From the IMG/VR virus record IMGVR_UViG_2875722834_000004: a DNA stretch of 26,521 nucleotides. One strand, 5' to 3'. This stretch comes from a virus. Lineage: Duplodnaviria; Heunggongvirae; Uroviricota; Caudoviricetes. A program made the translations under genes and the position numbers. Shown one piece after another: positions 6,275 through 16,662 of this stretch. How positions within the stretch are numbered: the first letter of the stretch is position 1; the number at the start of each line of letters is the position of its first letter. The notes below the pieces were generated by a model. The model searched no databases. It was given only the letters and a program-made list of their open reading frames with translations, and had not been told where the DNA came from.

Positions 6275-6466
6275 ATGAGGAAGAACAAAGTGGCTGATTT
6301 TTGTTCAGCTAAATATAACATCAGTTTTGAAGAGCGGGATGAACTATTAATGGACTATGGTGAGTTACGCGGTGGAAGTGCTGCTGATGTCGAATCCTAG
6401 CGTGATGACTATGAAGCGGGAAAAACTCCGGTCGAAGCATATTGTGATGAGTGGGGCGATGAATGA
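6275..6466 (+). pseudogene. Short ORF with internal in-frame TAG (6398-6400); possible decayed phage gene
   Basis: ATG 6275; 41 codons, TAG, then 21 codons ending …YCDEWGDE with the stop overlapping the next ATG (ATGA). Confidence 0.25.
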
Positions 6467-6750
6467 GCGAGATTAATTATCAGGAAGGGCATGAAACGGC
6501 GGGGCAAGCAAAACCAGTGGCATGGCGATATCGCTACGTGAAAAAAGGCGTTACGGACTTTCAGGGGAAGTAGTGGTCTGGTGACTGGAAATATGTACCG
6601 AAAAAAGAGGATTGTAACGACAGGCCGAACTATCAAATTCAGGCCTTATTCACTGCCTCACCAGTCCCAGTTACATCAGAAGAACTGGTTAAAGCTGTGC
6701 ACTTTTATGAACAACTAAAACGCGAAAATCCACCAACATCCGGCAACTAG
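6463..6750 (+). pseudogene. ORF with internal in-frame TAG (6571-6573); possible decayed phage gene (~95 codons)
   Basis: MSEINYQEGHETAGQAKPVAWRYRYVKKGVTDFQGK*WSGDWKYVPKKEDCNDRPNYQIQALFTASPVPVTSEELVKAVHFYEQLKRENPPTSGN*; 59 codons stay open after the TAG, which is unlikely by chance. Confidence 0.3.
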
Positions 6751-7004
6751 ATTAATGGATTAACTATGTCGGTTAAACGACCAGCCAACTGAAAAAGCGG
6801 AAACCTGATTACAGGTTGCCAGATAAGGCAATGAGCTACCTGGCGCGGAACGGACTGATAAGTATGGGGAATGTTTTACGATGAACCTTTAGACTAAAGA
6901 GTTTGTAACGCTATGTAAGTGATTTTTTCTGGTTTAGATATTTATATGTCCGGCCAAATTGAGGTGTGTTTAAATGTAATTGCACATTGATTGTAGGAGG
7001 AATA

Positions 7005-7184
7005 ATGAAAAACGCATTGCAGTTTTTGTTTGTTGCGTTCTGGTTGTTCGCATCATGTATGCCCATCATCTTCACAGCAAGGTATATGGAAAAAGTTGAT
7101 GTTTTGATATTAATATTTGGATATATAAATGCCCTTTTTTTAGGGGTGTTCATGGCGGTCATGTGCATTGAATACTGGCGGTAA
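7005..7184 (+). CDS. Small hydrophobic protein (59 aa, two predicted transmembrane segments)
   Basis: ATG 7 nt downstream of a consensus AGGAGG (6995-7000); protein MKNALQFLFVAFWLFASCMPIIFTARYMEKVDVLILIFGYINALFLGVFMAVMCIEYWR; lies in an AT-rich islet. Confidence 0.5.
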   Translation: MKNALQFLFVAFWLFASCMPIIFTARYMEKVDVLILIFGYINALFLGVFMAVMCIEYWR

Positions 7185-7439
7185 ATACAGCGAACTCCAT
7201 TGGTTTAGTTGGATATTTACTGTGCTGGACAAAAACGGTTTGCGGGGAAATCTTAGTTAAGTAGAATGACTGCGGGTGCTTGAGGCTATCTGCCTCGGGC
7301 ATGGACACCAACGGCAGATAGAGAAAAGCCCCAGTTAACATTACGCGTCCTGCAAGACGCTTAACATTAATCTGAGGCCAATTTCATGCTAGACACATGT
7401 AGGTTAGCCTCTTACGTGCCGAAAGGCACGGAGAAGCAG

Positions 7440-8900
7440 GCTATTGTTAACACCAAGCTGTAATGTCCCCTTTGAACCATTCTAAAATGTCCCCAGACAA
7501 TTCTCTGGGGGATTTTTCATGATCAAAGAGACTGTTACGATGAGTCATAAGGAACTCCACCGACTTCAGATTATTCAGGAACAAGCTGCGGCACGCATTG
7601 GCATTTCTATTCGGCAGGTTAAACGTCTGGTGCAACGGTATAGAAATGAAGGGCCTTCTGGTCTGGTTTCCCACCGACGTGGAAAGCGTCCTAATAATTC
7701 CTTTTCTACTGAATTCAGAGCAACAGTAATTTCACTCCTCAAAGGCCGTTACGCTGATTTTGGACCTACGTTTGCGTGCGAAAAATTGCGCGAGATACAC
7801 GGTTTATCTTTATCCGTTGAAACTCTCAGAAAGTGGATGATAGAAGAGGGGTTATGGCGTGAACGCCGTCGTAAAATTGCCCGTATATATCAACGCCGCA
7901 TGCGACGACCATCTTACGGTGAACTGATCCAGATTGATGGCTCACCTCATGACTGGTTTGAAAATCGAGGCCCCAGATGTACACTGATCGTTTTCATTGA
8001 TGATGCCACCAGTGCGTTGATGGCGTTGCGTTTTGTGCCTGCTGAAACAACCCGGGCTTACATGGAAACCCTCCGGGGTTACCTTAATGATCATGGCGTA
8101 CCGCTCGCTCTCTACTCTGATAGACACAGTATATTCAGGGTAAATAACCCAGAGCGGGAAGGTGAGCTGACCCAGTTCACTCGTGCGATAAAGACACTGG
8201 GCATCGAGCCAATCCATGCCAACAGCCCGCAGGCAAAAGGGCGGGTAGAGCGCGCCAATCAGACACTACAGGACAGGCTGGTCAAAGAAATGCGGCTTCA
8301 GAATATCAGTGATATTGAAACAGCAAATGCATGGTTGCCGACCTTTATTGAAGCCTATAACAACCGGTTCGCTACGTCGCCTCGTACTACTGATAATGCT
8401 CATCTTGATGTGCACCATTCTGAAGAGGAACTGGGTTATATCTTCAGCCTACAGGCGAAGCGCGTTCTGTCTAAAAATCTCACTTTCCAGTACAAAAGCA
8501 GTGCGTTTCAGGTACGCAGTGAGGGCCGGGGATATCGACTTAGGCATTCGGTTGTTACTGTATGCGAGAACTTTGACGGTGAAATTAACGTTCTGTATGA
8601 CGGGAAAGCGCTGGGCTGGGAAAAGTATGTTGATGGCCCGGAGCCTATACCACTGGATGATGAAAAGAGTGTCCATGAACGAGTGGATAATGCCCGTATT
8701 GATTTACGCTCAAAATACTATGTTAAACCTAAAGCTGACCATCCCTGGCTTACGCGCCGAACGCAAAGTCATCAGCAAGTTAAGCCCCCGAAGTTACCTA
8801 AAAAGAAGCCTGATCCCGATAAAAAAGATTGAAACCAAGATCGATTCGGTTGAGTGCATATCCATTCATAGGGTAGATTCTTAAGTCGCGTTTCTGGTGT
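7440..8900 (+). mobile_element. Putative insertion sequence carrying the 437-aa transposase (ends not defined)
   Basis: Single transposase ORF replacing the segment where Qin carries dicA/dicC/ydfABC; a hairpin (CCCCAGA...TCTGGGG, 7489-7507) sequesters the GGGGGA SD-like sequence before the ATG. I could not identify terminal inverted repeats or a target duplication by eye. Confidence 0.3.
7519..8832 (+). CDS. DDE transposase/integrase (rve core), IS481/ISNCY-like, 437 aa
   Basis: N-terminal HTH-like region, then DDE triad candidates (IQIDGSPHDW, YSDRHS, SPQAKGRVERANQTLQ). Confidence 0.8.
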   Translation: MIKETVTMSHKELHRLQIIQEQAAARIGISIRQVKRLVQRYRNEGPSGLVSHRRGKRPNNSFSTEFRATVISLLKGRYADFGPTFACEKLREIHGLSLSVETLRKWMIEEGLWRERRRKIARIYQRRMRRPSYGELIQIDGSPHDWFENRGPRCTLIVFIDDATSALMALRFVPAETTRAYMETLRGYLNDHGVPLALYSDRHSIFRVNNPEREGELTQFTRAIKTLGIEPIHANSPQAKGRVERANQTLQDRLVKEMRLQNISDIETANAWLPTFIEAYNNRFATSPRTTDNAHLDVHHSEEELGYIFSLQAKRVLSKNLTFQYKSSAFQVRSEGRGYRLRHSVVTVCENFDGEINVLYDGKALGWEKYVDGPEPIPLDDEKSVHERVDNARIDLRSKYYVKPKADHPWLTRRTQSHQQVKPPKLPKKKPDPDKKD

Positions 8901-9268
8901 TCATTTTCGGGTGGTTTGTTACTTGTTTTACCGGGGATATGCCAGAAACGCGCTGAGTCAGTCTGGGCGGTGCGCGTAATGAGGCGTTATGGTAAATAGC
9001 CTATGCTAATGTCCGCTAAGAGCAAGAAGCGGAAGTTGGCAGTTTTGTGGACTGTCCCCACAAAAGTGACTACAGAAATAGTTGCAATTCATAATTGATC
9101 ATGGGTTGTCAGTTAAACTCGTGGCGATTTAAATAGACTAATTGGGAGTGCGTCCATTACTTATATCTTGTAATGTTAACTATCAGAAATGATACAAAGA
9201 TAATATGTCTTTAAAGAAAAGGCTGATGGCGAAAAGTGGCCCGATGAGGGCCACAATACGGCTGTCAC

Positions 9269-9601
9269 TTAGACGTAAATATCAATGGTGCCAGCGGTAT
9301 TTGTATCGTCTTTTTTCTCTTCTTTTTTATCAGGCTGAACTGTCGCGTCTTCATTCTTTTTCTCTGCCTGCTGCCTTAACAACTGCTCCAGTTGAGCCCA
9401 GAGGCTTTCAATTTGCTTCTGTACCAATGCAGCCATTTCTTTTTTCTGCTGTGTCGTCATCCCCTCTTCCGATGAGATTTTCCCAAGCTTTTCAGTCAGC
9501 ACCTGAATTTGTCTTGTGATTTTGGCTATTTCTGATGTTCCTTCCGGGGCGGAGTTGTTTGAAATAACGGTTGAGGTATTTCCCTGAATTGTGACAGACA
9601 T
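9269..9601 (-). CDS. flxA: FlxA (FliA-regulated protein of the Qin prophage), 110 aa
   Basis: Recalled match to E. coli FlxA; GGAGA SD before the ATG; consensus sigma-28 promoter immediately upstream. Confidence 0.8.
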   Translation of the reverse strand: MSVTIQGNTSTVISNNSAPEGTSEIAKITRQIQVLTEKLGKISSEEGMTTQQKKEMAALVQKQIESLWAQLEQLLRQQAEKKNEDATVQPDKKEEKKDDTNTAGTIDIYV

Positions 9602-9624
9602 AGATTTCTCCTTTTAAAAAAGCA

Positions 9625-9651
9625 CTATCGGCATGCACAAAAAAATCTTTA
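9625..9651 (-). promoter_or_regulatory. Sigma-28 (FliA) class 3 promoter for flxA
   Basis: Minus strand reads TAAAGATT-N11-GCCGATAG, matching the FliA consensus TAAAGTTT-N11-GCCGATAA, about 25 nt upstream of the flxA start. Confidence 0.6.
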
Positions 9652-9803
9652 ATCGTATTTCTTGTGTCATTAATTGTTTGATGTTCAGATTGTTTTCCTC
9701 GCGGGCTGGCGCGCCTCAGAAAGTAAAGCTTGTTGACAGGGGTAAACGTTCGGCAATAATTTTCTGCCGCATGCGGGTGTTGCATAAAACGTGTTACGTT
9801 CCT

Positions 9804-10109
9804 TTATCGACAGGTCAGGTCACCGCTCACCCGCCGACGAGAAAGCAACACTGACATGCTAAAGCAAAAAATAGATGAATAAGTTGAGTTGTGCATATGT
9901 AGCCTGACCGTCACAAAGTATATGGTGTCTGTACCAGTAAGATGATGGCCGGACTCTTTAAAAACGAGCTGACCTGCACAATACAGGATGGACTTAGCAA
10001 TGGCTGCTCCTGGCACAAAGCGGACAGTGATCACCGTTCTTACGACTACTTTCTGACTTCCTTCGTGACTTGCCCTAAGCATGTTGTAGTGCGATACTTG
10101 TAATGACAT
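9804..10109 (-). CDS. ydfV: Hypothetical protein in the ydfV position (101 aa)
   Basis: 101-aa ORF between flxA and relB, same length and position as ydfV in Qin; sequence identity not verified. Confidence 0.4.
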   Translation of the reverse strand: MSLQVSHYNMLRASHEGSQKVVVRTVITVRFVPGAAIAKSILYCAGQLVFKESGHHLTGTDTIYFVTVRLHMHNSTYSSIFCFSMSVLLSRRRVSGDLTCR

Positions 10110-10122
10110 TTGTAATTACAAG
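10097..10122 (+). promoter_or_regulatory. relBE operator/promoter region (relO-like inverted TTGTAAT repeats)
   Basis: CTTGTAATGACATTTGTAATTACAAG palindrome directly upstream of the relB SD and ATG. Confidence 0.55.
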
Positions 10123-10133
10123 AGGTGTAAGAC

Positions 10134-10373
10134 ATGGGTAGCATTAACCTGCGTATTGACGATGAACTTAAAGCGCGTTCTTACGCCGCGCTTGAAAAAA
10201 TGGGTGTAACTCCTTCTGAAGCGCTTCGTCTCATGCTCGAGTATATCGCTGACAATGAACGCTTGCCGTTCAAACAGACACTCCTGAGTGATGAAGATGC
10301 TGAACTTGTGGAGATAGTGAAAGAACGGCTTCGTAATCCTAAGCCAGTACGTGTGACGCTGGATGAACTCTGA
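10134..10373 (+). CDS. relB: RelB antitoxin (79 aa)
   Basis: MGSINLRIDDELKARSYA...PKPVRVTLDEL matches E. coli RelB; stop overlaps the relE start (TGATG). Confidence 0.9.
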   Translation: MGSINLRIDDELKARSYAALEKMGVTPSEALRLMLEYIADNERLPFKQTLLSDEDAELVEIVKERLRNPKPVRVTLDEL

Positions 10374-10498
10374 TGGCGTATTTTCTGGATTTTGACGAGC
10401 GGGCACTAAAGGAATGGCGAAAGCTGGGCTCGACGGTACGTGAACAGTTGAAAAAGAAGCTGGTTGAAGTACTTGAGTCACCCCGGATTCGAGGTTAA
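10373..10498 (+). pseudogene. relE: Truncated relE toxin gene (first ~39 codons, then unrelated sequence and a stop)
   Basis: MAYFLDFDERALKEWRKLGSTVREQLKKKLVEVLESPRI matches the RelE N-terminus; the frame then reads RG and stops, lacking the RelE C-terminal catalytic half. Confidence 0.8.
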
Positions 10499-10608
10499 GA
10501 AAGCTCTCAGTCTCGACTATCGGCACTGGATAATCTCTGTCAGGCTGCCTTATTCCGAACGCCCACCACGTGCGTCCCGCACTTTCCAGCAACGGATCTG
10601 GAGGTAAC

Positions 10609-11658
10609 GTGCGGGTATTACTTAGACCTGTTCTGGTGCCTGAGCTTGGGCTGGTGGTCCTTAAGCCGGGCCGTGAATCCATACAGATATTTCATAATCC
10701 TCGAGTGCTGGTGGAACCGGAACCAAAAAGCATGCGTAATCTGCCATCCGGAGTCGTTCCTGCCGTTCGCCAGCCGCTGGCGGAAGACAAAACATTGCTG
10801 CCGTTTTTTAGTAACGAACGGGTGATTCGTGCTGCTGGCGGCGTTGGCGCATTGTCCGACTGGCTATTACGTCATGTTACATCCTGCCAGTGGCCTAATG
10901 GCGATTACCATCACACTGAAACAGTCATTCACCGTTATGGTACCGGCGCAATGGTGTTGTGCTGGCACTGCGACAACCAACTGCGTGACCAGACATCGGA
11001 ATCACTGGAGCTGCTTGCTCAACAAAATCTGACAGCATGGGTGATTGACGTCATCCGTCACGCAATAAGCGGTACGCAGGAGCGGGAATTATCTTTGGCT
11101 GAATTATCCTGGTGGGCGGTCTGCAATCAGGTGGTGGATGCACTACCTGAGGCTGTATCGCGTCGTTCGCTGGGATTACCAGCGGAAAAAATCTGCTCGG
11201 TGTACCGCGAAAGCGACATCGTACCGGGAGAGCAGACCGCCACCAGCATATTGAAACAACGCACAAAAAATCTTGCACCGTTGCCTTACGCCCACCAGCA
11301 ACAAAAATCACCACAGGAAAAGACGGTGGTAAGCATCACCGTTGATCCAGAGTCTCCGGAATCTTTCATGAAGCTGCCTAAACGTCGCCGCTGGGTTAAG
11401 GAGAAATACACACGTTGGGTTAAGACACAGCCGTGTGCTTGCTGCAGTATGCCAGCCGACGATCCGCATCATCTGATTGGTCACGGGCAGGGCGGAATGG
11501 GAACAAAAGCACATGATCTCTTTGTGTTGCCTTTGTGCAGAAAGCATCACAACGAGCTGCATACGGATACAGTGGCATTTGAAGATAAGTATGGCTCCCA
11601 ACTGGAGCTGATATTTCGTTTTATCGATCGCGCGCTGGCAATTGGCGTACTGGTGTAA
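10609..11658 (+). CDS. ydfU: YdfU-like protein (DUF968-type) with a C-terminal HNH/zinc-finger-like motif
   Basis: GTG start 4 nt after a GGAGG SD; 349 aa, the length I recall for K-12 YdfU; C-terminus has CACCSMPADDPHHLIGHG...CRKHHNELH. The six-frame ORF extends upstream to 10570. Confidence 0.7.
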   Translation: MRVLLRPVLVPELGLVVLKPGRESIQIFHNPRVLVEPEPKSMRNLPSGVVPAVRQPLAEDKTLLPFFSNERVIRAAGGVGALSDWLLRHVTSCQWPNGDYHHTETVIHRYGTGAMVLCWHCDNQLRDQTSESLELLAQQNLTAWVIDVIRHAISGTQERELSLAELSWWAVCNQVVDALPEAVSRRSLGLPAEKICSVYRESDIVPGEQTATSILKQRTKNLAPLPYAHQQQKSPQEKTVVSITVDPESPESFMKLPKRRRWVKEKYTRWVKTQPCACCSMPADDPHHLIGHGQGGMGTKAHDLFVLPLCRKHHNELHTDTVAFEDKYGSQLELIFRFIDRALAIGVLV

Positions 11659-11671
11659 GTGGAGAACGAGC

Positions 11672-12424
11672 ATGAACCTTGAAGCCTTACCAAAATATTA
11701 CTCCCCAAAATCTCCAAAATTGAGCGATGACGCTCCAGCGACAGGCACCGGTTGTTTAACAATTACGGATGTAATGGCAGCGCAGGGGATGGTGCAGTCG
11801 AAAGCACCACTTGGGTTGGCCTTATTTCTGGCAAAAGTTGGTGTTCAGGACCCTCAGTTTGCGATTGAAGGCCTGCTAAATTACGCGATGGCACTGGATA
11901 ACCCGACATTGAACAAATTGAGTGAAGAAATCCGGTTACAGATTATTCCTTACCTCGTGAGTTTTGCCTTTGCTGATTACTCCAGGTCTGCGGCAAGTAA
12001 GGCTCGCTGTGAGCATTGTTCAGGTACGGGATTTTATAATGTATTGCGCGAAGTGGTGAAACACTACAGACGCGGGGAATCTGTAATCAAGGAAGAATGG
12101 GTGAAGGAACTATGTCAGCATTGCCATGGTAAGGGCGAAGCCAGCACAGCGTGCAGAGGGTGTAAGGGTAAAGGGATTGTTCTGGATGAAAAAAGAACCC
12201 GGTTTCATGGCGTACCGGTATATAAGATTTGTGGGCGTTGTAATGGAAACCGGTTTAGTCGTTTACCGACCACGCTGGCACGACGTCATGTCCAGAAGCT
12301 GGTACCAGACCTGACCGATTATCAGTGGTATAAGGGGTATGCGGACGTCATTGGTAAACTGGTAACAAAGTGCTGGCAGGAAGAAGCATACGCGGAAGCG
12401 CAATTGAGGAAGGTGATGAGATAA
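11672..12424 (+). CDS. quuQ: Late-gene antiterminator Q homolog (QuuQ-like), 250 aa
   Basis: Cys/His-rich zinc-binding region (CEHCSGTG...CQHCHGKG...CRGCKGKG...CGRCNG) typical of Q-family antiterminators; sits upstream of the lysis cassette. Confidence 0.75.
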   Translation: MNLEALPKYYSPKSPKLSDDAPATGTGCLTITDVMAAQGMVQSKAPLGLALFLAKVGVQDPQFAIEGLLNYAMALDNPTLNKLSEEIRLQIIPYLVSFAFADYSRSAASKARCEHCSGTGFYNVLREVVKHYRRGESVIKEEWVKELCQHCHGKGEASTACRGCKGKGIVLDEKRTRFHGVPVYKICGRCNGNRFSRLPTTLARRHVQKLVPDLTDYQWYKGYADVIGKLVTKCWQEEAYAEAQLRKVMR

Positions 12425-12845
12425 ATGATTTTTGCTGAAGATGGCGACATGATGTTTGCATTTTTCAAAAAATATGGATAAAATTTTTTCAACGATGGGC
12501 TTTGTATACCCGACGTTAAGAAAAAGTAGAAAACCTGCTGATGAGCGGGTTTTGTGCTTTAAATGGGGCAATGGTAATGTTGAATATCATCCCGGGACTC
12601 ATGTCTGTTAACTTATTATTTAGCTGGTGACTTGGTTATTTGCCTGATGTTTAAAATGTTTTCTTCCAGTACAATGTCCCTAAACACAATGAGTCTGCTT
12701 ATTATATTATTAGCAGAGCTATTACGGCCAAAGTACAGCATAAGCTTTTAAAGCCAATCAACCAGTCATCAAGACAGACGGGGTTATTCATAAAAACTCT
12801 CCATGTGTGATCCGATGGGGCCTGAAATTAAAGCTTTAATATAGC

Positions 12846-13058
12846 TCATGAAAGGTAAACATTGGCAGCTGAAGGGCCACGCAGACCATTTATCCGGCAA
12901 AATTCCACGCGTAATCCGGTGGTAATTTCTTCTGCATCGCGGAGATTGAGCGCTGAAACATGAAGCTGGACATCGATACGACCATCGGATGGGGTGATAA
13001 GACCCTTGCCGCTTTTGCCGTCAAAGGTTTTGACAATTCCTGTCATTTTACGGGACAA
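12846..13058 (-). CDS. cspF: Cold-shock-domain protein CspF-like (70 aa)
   Basis: [37 protein letters not shown]...; cold-shock domain, divergent from cspB as in Qin. Confidence 0.8.
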
Positions 13059-13358
13059 AAAAATTCCTTAATACTGATAACTTGGCGCACTATACACACG
13101 TTCCTGAAGAAAGCTATAGTTTTTTGATGGGGTTGAAGATGGCTGGATGTCTAAAATAAACATTGCTTCATATGTTCAACTATGCGTTAATGATTGCGTC
13201 GGTTTGAAGAACAGACGATATACGAAGTAGTTTACTAAAGCAGTTCTCATTTCAGGTGTTATTCACTTATTCCTTCTTTGAGTCTCTCCAATTAAGTACG
13301 AAGTCGTTTCTGTTATGCAAACCATTTATGCCGAAAGGCTCAAGTTAAGGAATGTAGA

Positions 13359-13574
13359 ATGTCAAATAAAATGACTGGTTTAGTAAAATGGTTTAACGCT
13401 GATAAAGGTTTCGGCTTTATTTCTCCTGTTGATGGTAGTAAAGATGTGTTTGTGCATTTTTCTGCGATTCAGAATGATAATTATCGAACCTTATTTGAAG
13501 GTCAAAAGGTTACCTTCTCTATAGAGAGTGGTGCTAAAGGTCCTGCAGCAGCAAATGTCATCATTACTGATTAA
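13359..13574 (+). CDS. cspB: Cold-shock protein CspB-like (71 aa)
   Basis: [38 protein letters not shown]... with RNP1/RNP2 motifs; AGGAAT SD; long upstream leader. Confidence 0.85.
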
Positions 13575-13855
13575 AATTCATCGCTCGTCTGTATACGATA
13601 ACGAAGAAGGCTGATGCCTGAGTAGAGATACGGACAGAGTAGTGAATATTGGATCTCTTTAATAAAAAGTAAGGAGGTCCAATACATGAAACAATGGCTA
13701 GCATATTTGGCAAAATCTTAATCAGGAAAAGTATGCTAACCATTGTGGTGAAGTGCAGGTTTGCTGCATGAATAGTTTTACAGCAGAAGCTAACTGCTGG
13801 CATGGCAAAACAAAGTGCGTAAGTGGATGACTCCCACAAAAAGCACCACAATCTC

Positions 13856-13880
13856 AAACCCGCTCAGGCGGGTTTTTTAT
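13856..13880 (+). terminator. Rho-independent terminator downstream of cspB
   Basis: AAACCCGC-TCAG-GCGGGTTT stem-loop followed by a T-run. Confidence 0.6.
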
Positions 13881-13937
13881 TATCTGCTTTAAATATATTA
13901 TTAAAATATAAAAAATACTTGTTACTAATAAAATCAA

Positions 13938-14108
13938 TCAGGCTACAGCTTTAAGATTTGTCTGGAATACTTTGTTGCAATGAGGGCAGATCAAAAGGGC
14001 ACCTTTTTGTACTCTTGAAAAACTGTGTTCTGACTCTTGGGGGCAGTTTGGGCAGGAACATTTAACGAGATAATTACGGCGTGATTTTGAGTTTTTACGT
14101 TCTGACAT
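13938..14108 (-). CDS. Small zinc-ribbon protein (56 aa), hypothetical
   Basis: AGGAAA SD 6 nt before ATG (MSERKNSK...); CxCxxC...CxxC arrangement (CSCPNCP...CPHC). The longer six-frame ORF (73 aa) lacks an RBS. Confidence 0.35.
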   Translation of the reverse strand: MSERKNSKSRRNYLVKCSCPNCPQESEHSFSRVQKGALLICPHCNKVFQTNLKAVA

Positions 14109-14327
14109 AGGCTTTTCCTGTATAAATGGCCGTATACAGTACACTAAATATGAAAACATTTCTCGTATTATTATTTTATATATGACTTTCTTTCAAAATA
14201 ATTACCCACATTTTTAATGTGTATGTTTTTTTAGCGCCGTTGAGAACAACGTGTGCTGTCAAAACTACCCCGTAGACTCCGATCTTTTCAAACATATTGC
14301 ACCATCCGTGTACATCGGGGTGAGGAT

Positions 14328-14543
14328 ATGAAATCAATGGATAAGTTAACAACAGGTGTTGCCTATGGCACATCGGCGGGTAATGCTGGTTTCTGGGCAT
14401 TGCAGTTACTCGATAAAGTAACTCCGTCACAGTGGGCTGCAATCGGTGTGCTGGGTAGCCTGGTTTTTGGCCTGCTGACGTATCTGACAAATCTTTATTT
14501 CAAGATTAAAGAAGACAGGCGTAAGGCTGCGAGAGGAGAGTAA
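14328..14543 (+). CDS. essQ: Phage holin (EssQ/EssD-like), 71 aa
   Basis: [71 protein letters not shown]; GAGGA SD; followed by ydfR and the endolysin as in Qin. Confidence 0.85.
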
Positions 14544-14547
14544 TCCA

Positions 14548-14859
14548 ATGACTCAAGACTATGAACTGGTTGTGAAAGGAGTCCGTAATTTTGAGAATAA
14601 AGTTACGGTAACTGTAGCCTTACAGGACAAAGAACGCTTTGACGGTGAAATTTTTGACCTGGATGTCGCCATGGACCGTGTTGAAGGAGCTGCGCTGGAG
14701 TTTTATGAGGCAGCAGCCAGAAGGAGCGTCCGGCAAGTCTTCCTGGAAGTAGCAGAAAAATTGTCAGAAAAAGTTGAGTCTTATCTGCAGCATCAATACT
14801 CCTTTAAGATTGAAAATCCTGCCAATAAGCACGAGCGTCCTCATCATAAATATCTATGA
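14548..14859 (+). CDS. ydfR: YdfR-like protein (DUF1327), 103 aa
   Basis: Position between holin and endolysin; stop overlaps the endolysin ATG (ATGA). Confidence 0.75.
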   Translation: MTQDYELVVKGVRNFENKVTVTVALQDKERFDGEIFDLDVAMDRVEGAALEFYEAAARRSVRQVFLEVAEKLSEKVESYLQHQYSFKIENPANKHERPHHKYL

Positions 14860-15048
14860 ACACAAAAATCAGATACGGCCTGTCGGCTGCCGTTCTGGCG
14901 CTGATTGGTGCTGGCGCATCTGCTCCTCAGATACTTGACCAGTTTCTGGACGAAAAAGAAGGTAACCACACAATGGCATACCGCGATGGTTCTGTGAACC
15001 GCCCCGGGAATCCTGGAGACTAAACTTCCTGAGAAAGAGGTAAACAGG

Positions 15049-15375
15049 ATGACTAAAAATACTCGTTTTTCCCCCGAAGTCCGTCAACGGGCAGTCCGTA
15101 TGGTTCTGGAAAGTCAGAGCGAATATGACTCACAATGGGCGACAATTTGTTCCATTGCTCCAAAGATTGGCTGTACGCCGGAGACTCTGCGTGTCTGGGT
15201 TCGCCAGCATGAGCGGGATACCGGGGGCGGTGATGGAGGGCTCACCACCGCTGAACGTCAGCGTCTGAAAGAGCTGGAACGTGAAAATCGTGAACTGCGC
15301 CGCAGTAACGATATCCTTCGCCAGGCTTCCGCTTATTTTGCGAAGGCGGAGTTCGACCGCCTCTGGAAAAAATGA
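15049..15375 (+). CDS. IS629 OrfA (transposase N-terminal/HTH protein), 108 aa
   Basis: [23 protein letters not shown]...; leucine-zipper-like C-terminus; overlaps orfB in the -1 frame. Confidence 0.9.
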
Positions 15376-16262
15376 TGCCACTGCTGGATAAGCTGCGTGA
15401 GCAGTACGGGGTCGGACCGCTATGCAGCGAACTGCATATTGCCCCGTCAACGTATTACCACTGTCAGCAACAGCGACATCATCCGGATAAACGCAGTGCC
15501 CGTGCGCAGCGCGATGACTGGCTGAAGAAAGAGATACAGCGCGTATACGATGAAAATCACAAGGTATACGGTGTGCGTAAAGTCTGGCGTCAGTTGTTAC
15601 GGGAAGGTATCAGAGTGGCCAGATGCACTGTGGCACGTCTCATGGCGGTTATGGGACTTGCCGGTGTTCTCCGGGGTAAAAAGGTCCGTACGACCATCAG
15701 CCGGAAAGCCGTTGCCGCAGGCGACCGCGTAAACCGTCAGTTCGTGGCAGAACGACCTGACCAGCTGTGGGTGGCTGATTTTACTTACGTCAGCACATGG
15801 CGGGGCTTCGTCTATGTGGCGTTCATCATTGATGTGTTTGCCGGATACATCGTGGGGTGGCGGGTCTCATCGTCCATGGAAACGACATTCGTGCTGGATG
15901 CACTGGAGCAGGCGTTATGGGCCCGTCGACCGTCCGGCACGGTCCATCACAGTGATAAAGGTTCTCAGTATGTATCGCTGGCCTACACACAGCGGCTTAA
16001 GGAAGCCGGATTACTGGCATCAACAGGAAGTACAGGCGACTCGTATGACAACGCGATGGCGGAGAGCATCAATGGTCTTTACAAAGCGGAGGTAATACAC
16101 CGTAAGAGCTGGAAAAACCGTGCAGAAGTGGAACTGGCCACACTCACGTGGGTGGACTGGTATAACAATCGACGATTGCTGGAAAGGCTGGGCCATACTC
16201 CTCCGGCAGAAGCAGAAAAAGCTTATTATGCTTCCATCGGAAACGATGATCTGGCAGCCTGA
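15372..16262 (+). CDS. IS629 OrfB (DDE transposase catalytic domain), 296 aa
   Basis: rve-type DDE domain (WVADFTYV...[10 protein letters not shown]...[13 protein letters not shown]); -1 frame relative to orfA, consistent with IS3-family OrfAB frameshifting. Confidence 0.9.
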
Positions 16263-16662
16263 GTTCACAGATAAAACACTCTCCAGGAAACCCGGGGCGG
16301 TTCACTGGCATATGGACCATCTGTCGGGGTGCCACAGTGGTGGATGGAAAAACCGTTTTTCCCAATATGAAACTGTCGAAGGAAAAATGCGACCAGGTCA
16401 ACGCCATTGAGCGTGATAAGGCGCTGGCATGGGTGGAGCGCAATATTAAAGTACCACTGACCGAACCACAAAAAGCGGGTATCGCGTCATTTTGTCCCTA
16501 TAACATTGGCCCCGGTAAGTGTTTCCCGTCGACGTTTTATAAGCGGCTGAATGCTGGTGATCGTAAAGGTGCATGCGAAGCGATTCGCTGGTGGATTAAG
16601 GATGGCGGACGCGATTGCCGCATTCGTTCAAATAACTGTTACGGTCAGGTTATTCGTCGTGA

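Follow-up and report, generated by a model that had tools for sequence, protein, structure and literature searches.

The transposase gene at positions 7519–8832 of the stretch analysed here raises the question of what kind of element it belongs to, since neither inverted repeats nor a target duplication can be seen around it. The stretch, hereafter the window, comprises 26,521 nucleotides of the IMG/VR virus record IMGVR_UViG_2875722834_000004 (Caudoviricetes) and represents a Qin-type cryptic prophage of Escherichia coli. An earlier reading made from the letters of the window (the sequence-only reading) described a DDE transposase with a structured leader and a hairpin at its start, belonging either to a partial insertion sequence (IS) or to a domesticated recombinase. 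The comparisons presented below indicate with high probability that positions 7445–10489 are a right-truncated, dead, one-ended relic of an IS1202-family (ISEsa1-type) transposon. Its site is the hokD locus, between the replication genes and the Q antiterminator. The main parts retained in the window, with strand and basis, are as follows; loci compared with the window are denoted by L numbers.

7274–7444, plus strand: orphaned 5′ half of the hokD hok/sok locus, with the hok mRNA leader, the sok region and the mok start (Rfam sok RF01794)
7430–7444, plus strand: left copy of the 15-bp target-site duplication, GGAGAAGCAGGCTAT (the same 15-mer follows the right inverted repeat in L001, L016 and K-12)
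7445–7470, plus strand: left inverted repeat (IRL), TGTTAACACCAAGCTGTAATGTCCCC, which includes the first putative transposase-binding site (the identity of the copies starts here)
7476–7494, plus strand: subterminal repeat of the inner IRL, ACCATTCTAAAATGTCCCC, the second putative transposase-binding site (direct repeat family)
7519–8832, plus strand: transposase gene, 437 aa, IS1202 family, ISEsa1 type (NF033594 match and protein identity)
10134–10373, plus strand: relB (Pfam RelB, 1e-32)
10373–10489, plus strand: relE, first ~38 codons (part of the right-end module together with relB and the right inverted repeat)
10484–10489, no strand: junction of a 1,088-bp deletion, with 6-bp microhomology (alignment to L001)

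The description of the gene product as a DDE transposase of 437 aa is borne out. The protein matches NCBIfam NF033594 (ISNCY family transposase) with 456 bits against a cutoff of 250; the Pfam families HTH_32, HTH_29 and HTH_28 (N-terminal helix-turn-helix) are above their cutoffs, and rve_3 reaches 24.4 bits, just under its cutoff of 26.5. All aligned relatives share the catalytic residues D (QIDGS), D (YSDRHS) and E (GRVERAN), which are intact in the window copy. The large DDE transposase (394–507 aa in the family), the helix-turn-helix N-terminus and the RNase H-fold core are those of the IS1202 family (PMC10132070). A plasmid-borne form of 446 aa is named “IS1202-like element ISEsa1 family transposase” by NCBI (type WP_004196353), and the ISEsa1 assignment is taken from this annotation name of the identical protein, not from an ISfinder reference sequence. 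The window allele equals the plasmid protein except for an in-frame 27-bp deletion at ~7567–7580, between TCAGGA repeats, by which the nine residues ESINRHITQ are lost; this segment is ungapped in every aligned relative. Translation may start at M1 (7519) or at M8 (7540), and the length of 439 aa given by ISfinder implies M8. E. coli W5-6 (L001) has the identical sequence, in which NCBI annotates 7540–8562 as a truncated “ISNCY family transposase” and the last 49 codons of the frame (8683–8832) as “YdfW”. In K-12, ydfW is accordingly the C-terminus of this transposase.

The close relation to the plasmid protein also bears on the suggestion that the gene is a recombinase kept by the prophage or the host for a new function. 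The open reading frame has remained open despite the lost right end, the 27-bp deletion is in frame, and 802 of 5,426 complete E. coli genomes have the gene as a fixed single copy in the Qin prophage (15% keep its 5′ part; median one copy), roughly half of them with the deleted allele (judged by 40 rows sampled across the ranking). However, the protein is otherwise identical to the plasmid-borne transposase, which leaves no time for decay or adaptation, and the nine lost residues fall within the segment that is ungapped in all aligned relatives. Moreover, about 87% of the E. coli genomes match some part of the wider query 6900–9400, but the 5′ part of the gene survives only in the above 15%; K-12 is truncated to the last ~62 codons, and in many other strains IS1, IS3, IS903B, ISKpn26 or ISSen4 sits in or beside the gene. 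Domestication is therefore given very little credence here.

The sequence-only reading correctly reported no inverted repeats and no target duplication in 7185–9100, and we likewise found no convincing inverted or direct terminal repeats within 7150–9350. An outer pair at 7183–7202 and 9283–9302 (75%), considered as possible ends, had no support from other copies. The repeats were not seen because the right end of a complete unit is ~3.3 kb away, after flxA, ydfV, relB and relE, and is deleted here, so that it lies outside both the interval and the window. The IRL begins with TGTTAAC at 7445 (TGTTAACACC); all independent copies are identical from exactly that base, and the repeat is conserved in relatives down to ~45% protein identity. 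The reverse complement of this TGT start matches only in complete relatives, as GGTGACACTTCTGCTTTGCGTTGACA, after relE and directly before a hok start codon. The right inverted repeat (IRR) ends in ...GCGTTGACA (ACA) in L001, L002, L004, L016 and K-12, and the IRL and IRR agree at 19 of 26 positions. The putative binding repeats of the left end lie at 7452–7470 and 7476–7494, with the same spacing across the family, and the right end of complete copies carries two more (CATGACATCTCTG... and GGTGACACTTCTG..., ~25 nt apart). The terminal repeats of the IS1202 family were thus found in the complete copies, whereas the window itself keeps the IRL alone; the extra internal binding repeat described for each end in this family (PMC10132070) is present as predicted sites. 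The IRR also ends in an outward-facing perfect −35 hexamer TTGACA (L001 11814–11819; K-12), directly before the regenerated hok Shine–Dalgarno sequence.

Between these ends, the unit contains the transposase gene, flxA and ydfV on the minus strand, relB and relE. The following complete copies, each flanked by perfect 15-bp direct repeats whose sequence differs by site, define it:

Qin hokD, E. coli W5-6 (L001): 3,274 bp, duplication GGAGAAGCAGGCTAT
Qin hokD, Shigella (L016): 3,301 bp, duplication GGAGAAGCAGGCTAT
IncF hok, Enterobacter (L002, L005): 3,301 and 3,307 bp, duplication GGAGAAGAAGGCCAT
IncI pnd, Salmonella (L004): 3,301 bp, duplication TGGAGGGGCTATGAT

Eight more fully flanked copies measure 2.6–12.8 kb. 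The duplications are of 15–16 bp (13–14 where the terminal base is ambiguous) in the 12 fully flanked enterobacterial copies and in ~13 copies from Hahella and Chromatiales. IS1202-family duplications are 3–5, 16–17 or 27–28 bp long depending on the subgroup (PMC10132070), and a subgroup-specific length is likewise seen in the complete copies, the right end of the window copy being deleted. When the window is compared with four plasmid copies, the sequences are identical rightwards from 7443–7445, and leftwards each copy has its own diverged hok leader.

The empty sites were searched for with queries in which the two flanks were joined through a single copy of the 15-mer. The IncI query gave a one-piece match, identical at 420/420 nt, in ColIb-P9 and in many further IncI plasmids, and the Qin query a one-piece match of ~99% in many E. 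coli chromosomes. A comparison with related prophages, which the sequence-only reading had proposed, reveals a clean insertion. In the prophage of E. coli CP53 (L086), hokD is uninterrupted and the stretch corresponding to 7274–7444 is contiguous with the hokD reading frame; homology to the window extends as far as 7444 and no further, that to the right flank of L001 sets in at the same 15-mer, and this 15-mer is present once (L086 5186–5200). The duplicated GGAGAAGCAGGCTAT contains the hokD Shine–Dalgarno sequence and the AT of the hokD ATG. These alignments show that the unit transposes whole with 15–16-bp target duplications, and that the element was inserted into the Qin hokD locus with duplication of the Shine–Dalgarno-to-ATG segment of hokD.

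The upstream flank has the same origin. The hairpins and repeats noted before the transposase gene are all present where they had been described: the TTAACATTA direct repeats at 7335–7343 and 7361–7369 and the GNRA-loop hairpin CGTGCC-GAAA-GGCACG at 7415–7430 all lie within the hok leader. They were taken for a structured leader of the transposase; 7274–7444 is instead the 5′ half of an interrupted hok/sok locus. The Rfam sok model RF01794, which spans the 5′ part of the hok mRNA as far as the hok AUG, matches over its full length (model 1–157) at 7274–7445 with 104.1 bits against a gathering threshold of 59 (E = 1e-23). This model stops at the IRL in ten more loci (L002, L003, L004, L006, L010, L013, L016, L022, L024 and L038). 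The hairpins and repeats of 7274–7444 are far above chance, but, on the strength of the Rfam match, as those of the known RNA family sok. The hok leader has its +1 at 7274, and the hok promoter is directed into the element; the truncated mok frame (ATG at 7386) enters the element as well and stops at a TAA inside the IRL. The leader and sok region with conserved secondary structure are thus found in the window, and the Hok reading frame expected downstream of them is missing, hokD being deleted from the window. It is present after the IRR in L001, L016 and K-12.

To place the unit within its family, a scan was performed with one genome per species, which returned 79 loci. A left module of ~1,606–1,631 bp, consisting of the IRL and the transposase gene, is common to all enterobacterial elements. 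The right module of 713 bp (relBE and IRR) is 96–99% identical in ISEsa1-type variants and 93% identical in the decayed L077. Variable cargo lies between the two, and the variants diverge at element positions 1606–1631, which correspond to window 9023–9048. In the window, this part contains the following features:

9023–9066, no strand: boundary between module and cargo, the conserved module being ~1.61 kb (divergence of cargo variants)
9269–9601, minus strand: cargo gene flxA (Pfam FlxA, 2e-14, and L001 annotation)
9804–10109, minus strand: cargo gene ydfV (annotation of the identical L001 sequence)

The cargo versions found across the family are:

3.3-kb element: flxA-ydfV
4.6-kb element: cytochrome b561-like protein and CDF cation-efflux protein
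6.09-kb element: cytochrome b561-like protein, CDF protein and a nested IS110-type IS
4.5-, 5.8- and 7.3-kb elements: other cargo versions
2.6 kb: copy with the transposase gene deleted
12,843 bp (L087 1016–13858), Phytobacter plasmid pMRY16-398_1: ncrABCY (nickel), chrBA (chromate) and relBE, duplication GGAGAAGTCAGCTAT

The modular build is relevant to a simpler explanation, namely that an ordinary 1.6-kb ISEsa1 lies next to resident flxA, ydfV and relBE genes that are not part of it. In Table 7 of PMC10132070, ISEsa1 is given 1,609 bp, 15/22 inverted repeats and no target duplication, and the length of the module common to the cargo variants fits the 1,609 bp. However, no repeat matching the IRL was found when the catalogued 15/22 right repeat was sought near element position 1609 (best 11/22), and no examined copy ends at ~1609 with a duplication; every fully flanked copy contradicts a 1.6-kb unit. 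The Phytobacter copy, which had been its sole apparent support as a short element ending at about window 9037, actually sits in a plasmid hok locus, reaches the same IRR after 12,843 bp and is flanked by a perfect 15-bp duplication. In addition, the same ends enclose the 3.3-kb unit, flxA, ydfV and relBE included, in three unrelated hok loci for which empty sites exist; flxA and ydfV also lie within the unit bounded by inverted repeats on IncF and IncI plasmids. An ordinary IS beside resident genes is thus highly improbable, and the ISfinder entry for ISEsa1 would seem to capture the left module only. If a known IS with clear inverted repeats had been present, the insertion would have been a routine one, as the sequence-only reading pointed out; the family is indeed known, but its published description (1609 bp, no duplication) does not fit.

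Several observations concern the cargo slot and more distant family members. The TTTTGTGG...CCACAAAA palindrome noted downstream of the gene is present at 9044–9066, as the opening feature of flxA-type cargo. By score it is not terminator-like, and as a relic left end it fails the threshold, with more than nine mismatches to the IRL. Window 9034–9066 contains ACTGTCCCC, which resembles the putative transposase-binding core AATGTCCCC in left-end orientation at the point where the cargo variants diverge; this likeness could be due to chance or be a relic of cargo capture. The element of Klebsiella michiganensis (L006) has the same cargo start as that of Phytobacter. A 71%-identical member in Scandinavium hiltneri (L037 5927–10201) carries a DUF1778/GNAT (TacAT-like) pair beside its right end instead of relBE, together with a GrpB-like protein and a Vat-like acetyltransferase. 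A toxin–antitoxin module at the right end may, from these sequences, be a general trait of the family. The relatives from Hahella (10 copies) and Chromatiales, with 60–63% protein identity in the best aligned segment, are plain IS of 1.37–1.45 kb with the same end architecture and 15–16-bp duplications in unrelated targets.

The choice of target was analysed by comparing 21 independent insertion sites. Twelve of them are the Shine–Dalgarno/start region of hok-family genes, including hokD, IncF hok, IncI pnd and a hokE-like gene, and the element has the same orientation as hok in 11 of these 12 (it is inverted in L020). The duplication always begins 0–1 nt past the 3′ arm of the last leader hairpin (...GGCAA or ...GGCAC), and its distance to the ATG varies by 0–8 nt among the hok sites. 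In Qin, the insertion point is 15 bp downstream of the last leader hairpin. At several non-hok sites, too, GGCAA or TGCAA stands just before the duplication. In Leclercia sp. EMC7 (L021 2627–7527 and the following ~1.4 kb), two family members, 72% identical, are arranged head-to-tail at one hok site, the second occupying the target copy regenerated by the first. No dif-like site was found next to the IRL; the left flanks are hok leaders (12 of 21) or unrelated. At a non-hok site in Kluyvera sp. (L017 5837–5950), a match to Rfam isrO (Hfq-binding small RNA) extends, on the other strand, across the left end of the element. Targeting of hok, as judged from the flanks, would be a strong preference and not an absolute rule.

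The association with hok could also have been inherited or selected: a single ancient insertion may have spread by recombination between hok paralogues, or the surviving copies may be those that disarm hok. The hok loci are homologous enough for recombination, an insertion that separates hok from sok and mok could be advantageous or tolerated, and 9 of the 21 sites are not in hok. On the other hand, the duplicated 15-mers vary by site and match the local empty site exactly (as in the IncI case), which would not hold for carried-over donor flanks. The insertion point is constant relative to the leader hairpin while the distance to the ATG varies, and selection alone would accept many positions in a hok locus. 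The two members side by side in Leclercia and the opposite orientation in L020 also speak against an inherited or selected association. Since the duplicated sequences are local and equal to the empty sites, repeated transposition into hok start regions is favoured over inheritance or recombination, which we consider unlikely.

The hairpin immediately before the transposase gene remains to be considered:

7490–7518, plus strand: hairpin CCCCAGA/TCTGGGG followed by ATTTTTC, over GGGGGA; candidate attenuator (fold and terminator-like score)

As had been noted, a 7-bp stem covers the ribosome-binding-like sequence at the start. CCCCAGA (7491–7497) pairs with TCTGGGG (7504–7510) across a 6-nt loop, and the stem covers GGGGGA (7507–7512), which lies 6 nt before the ATG. 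The stem is part of the minimum-energy RNA fold of 7445–7545 (−26.6 kcal/mol; z = −2.4; 2 of 200 shuffled sequences reach this stability), and the hairpin with the following ATTTTTC scores as terminator-like. Its 5′ arm overlaps the second putative binding repeat. In the close relatives L034 and L038, a compensatory change (CCCCG/CGGGG) keeps the hairpin, and in many distant relatives the end of site 2 is complementary to the G-rich region before the start. Given that the hok promoter points into the element, the most plausible role of the hairpin would be to damp read-through expression from this promoter, either by termination or by hiding of the ribosome-binding site.

Taken together, these data suggest the following scheme. 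A complete unit consists, in order, of the 26-bp IRL (TGT), a subterminal binding repeat, the transposase gene with its ribosome-binding site buried in a preceding hairpin, a cargo slot, relB-relE, two binding repeats and the IRR (ACA). The leader hairpin and the GGCAA motif next to the duplication would direct the transposase to hok start regions, expression from the incoming hok promoter would be damped by the hairpin and T-run ahead of the transposase ATG, and relBE may act as the element's own addiction module. In Qin, the insertion left the hok promoter, sok and the mok start upstream (7274–7444) and placed the hokD reading frame, with a regenerated Shine–Dalgarno sequence and ATG, directly behind relE, giving the relB-relE-hokD arrangement of K-12. 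Later, a 27-bp slippage deletion shortened the N-terminus of the transposase, and a 1,088-bp deletion removed the 3′ end of relE, the IRR and hokD. In its widest form, the interpretation is that ISEsa1-type elements are site-directed transposons that home to hok starts by a hairpin/GGCAA beacon, carry their own relBE or TacAT-like module and make hok the last gene of the relBE operon; that relBEF together with flxA, ydfV and ydfW of K-12 is the remnant of one such element; and that such elements spread relBE and metal resistance among enterobacterial plasmids. We give this wide interpretation an even chance.

Several points weigh against the scheme set out above. The window holds one end only, and the term transposon is drawn from identical or near-identical copies elsewhere. 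No transposition event has been seen in an experiment, and the median copy number in E. coli genomes is one. Nine of the 21 independent sites are not hok loci, and the recognition determinant is deduced from flank comparison alone. PMC10132070, quoting ISfinder, gives ISEsa1 as 1,609 bp with 15/22 inverted repeats. Finally, a family-wide shuffle test of the complementarity before the transposase start, with a crude window design and uncertain start codons (M1 or M8), was weakly significant (Fisher p ~0.007; 5 of 21 individually <0.05), and covariation is not claimed as proven.

The state of the window copy can be reconstructed by alignment to W5-6. Window 6322–10489 equals L001 7423–11590 (100% identity), and window 10484–14994 equals L001 12678–17188. 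The 1,088 bp missing between them include the 3′ end of relE, the IRR, the right copy of the duplication, hokD, rem and the 5′ end of the next gene; as the deletion took the right end, the window copy is one-ended and immobile as a unit. The relE gene is cut after about codon 38 and joined to the sequence just upstream of ydfU (window 10373–10609), so that of the relBE operon relB is intact and relE truncated. The Qin prophage of this strain lacks hokD and rem, and RelB is left without its cognate toxin gene. The suggestion of a partial IS holds insofar as the copy lacks its right end relative to L001; what is partial, however, is not a ~1.6-kb IS devoid of repeats but a 3.3-kb unit that elsewhere has 26-bp repeats and a 15-bp duplication. 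K-12 is truncated in the opposite way: it keeps window 8648–10489 (100% identical), followed by the IRR, the duplication and the hokD ATG, and lacks the hok leader, the IRL and the first 1.13 kb of the transposase gene, ydfX spanning the junction and the last ~62 codons being retained.

The sequence-only reading further held that the element replaces the prophage immunity region. The Shigella Qin prophage (L016) has dicF and homologues of dicA and dicC at L016 195–3149, which are missing from the window, with the gap at ~4683, that is, 2.7 kb to the left of the element; in the empty-site prophage of CP53, the immunity genes are present and hokD is intact. From the comparison with CP53 and the Shigella Qin prophage it follows that the transposon did not replace the immunity region, and that the two changes, 2.7 kb apart, are separate events. 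Many E. coli chromosomes match window 6900–9400 at 100% identity and have the flanking genes annotated as ydfW and flxA. Just upstream of the hok leader, window 6966–7184 encodes a hydrophobic 72-aa reading frame with no Pfam match that is unannotated in the identical W5-6 sequence. In the lysis-gene region, a 1.3-kb IS3-family element (window 14995–16304; OrfA of 108 aa and OrfB of 296 aa) is missing from the otherwise identical W5-6 prophage. W5-6 in turn has an ISEc22 (IS66-family) insertion (L001 5338–7422) that is not present at window 6322–6330.

On the reading given above, the element has consequences for several known loci. Its true ends, the 15–16-bp duplication and the cargo resolve the anomaly of an ISEsa1 without target duplication in the IS1202-family paper. 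A second target specificity, for hok start regions, is added to a family known for homing to dif. For relBE-hokD of K-12, a model toxin–antitoxin locus, a concrete vehicle and mechanism of origin are provided, and the orphan K-12 genes are explained, ydfW as a transposase fragment and flxA and ydfV as transposon cargo. The nickel/chromate resistance and other cargo on conjugative plasmids are relevant to plasmid annotation. IS150 and IS186 were reportedly found at hokA, hokC and hokE of K-12 by Pedersen and Gerdes in 1999, who are said to have ascribed the inactivation of hokD to a “major rearrangement”; the present element would supply the identity of that rearrangement. As in the K-12 cases, a mobile element separates a hok/sok locus from its regulatory elements; unlike them, the element belongs to another family, is apparently directed to hok, regenerates the hok start and places hok behind relBE.

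In the literature, a 2019 review (PMC6379469), citing Ramisetty and Santhosh 2016, states that relBE was integrated into hokD from plasmids; as cited there, no vehicle or transposon is named. A preprint of 2026 that deals with Hok diversity is silent on the matter, and in a limited search we found no publication linking IS1202 or ISEsa1 with hok, relBE or an ncrY-relE-transposase arrangement. The family is known; within this limited search, its true boundaries, duplication length, relBE cargo and hok targeting appear unreported.

Compared with known systems, the element is close to ISEsa1 of the IS1202 family (formerly the ISNCY/IS1202 group): its transposase differs from the proteins to which NCBI gives that name only by the 9-aa deletion, and its conserved module has the length of the catalogued IS. 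Unlike the catalogued ISEsa1, which was placed by Harmer and Hall (2023; PMC10132070) in a subgroup of its own, without target duplication, the units found here are 2.6–12.8 kb long, end beside relBE and are flanked by 15–16-bp duplications. The ISAjo2/ISAba71 group, which targets dif/pdif, resembles them in its ~440-aa TnsB-like DDE transposase, its TGT...ACA termini, the extra internal repeat at each end, and its preferred orientation of insertion at a short, constant spacing from a specific sequence (PMC10132070). Members of that group, however, are found 5 bp away from XerC/XerD sites, generate 5-bp duplications and lack cargo; insertion 3–6 bp from the XerC side of dif/pdif, characteristic of the ISAjo2 subgroup, was not found here, and instead the element sits ~15 bp from the hok-leader hairpin, with 15–16-bp duplications, relBE and variable cargo. 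Like tISKpn21, tISKpn65 and tISRel10 (PMC10132070), it carries passenger genes between the transposase gene and an end. Those elements carry one reading frame of unknown function each, whereas ISEsa1-type variants keep a toxin–antitoxin operon at the right end and fill the middle slot with flxA-ydfV, with a CDF transporter and cytochrome b561, or with nickel/chromate resistance genes.

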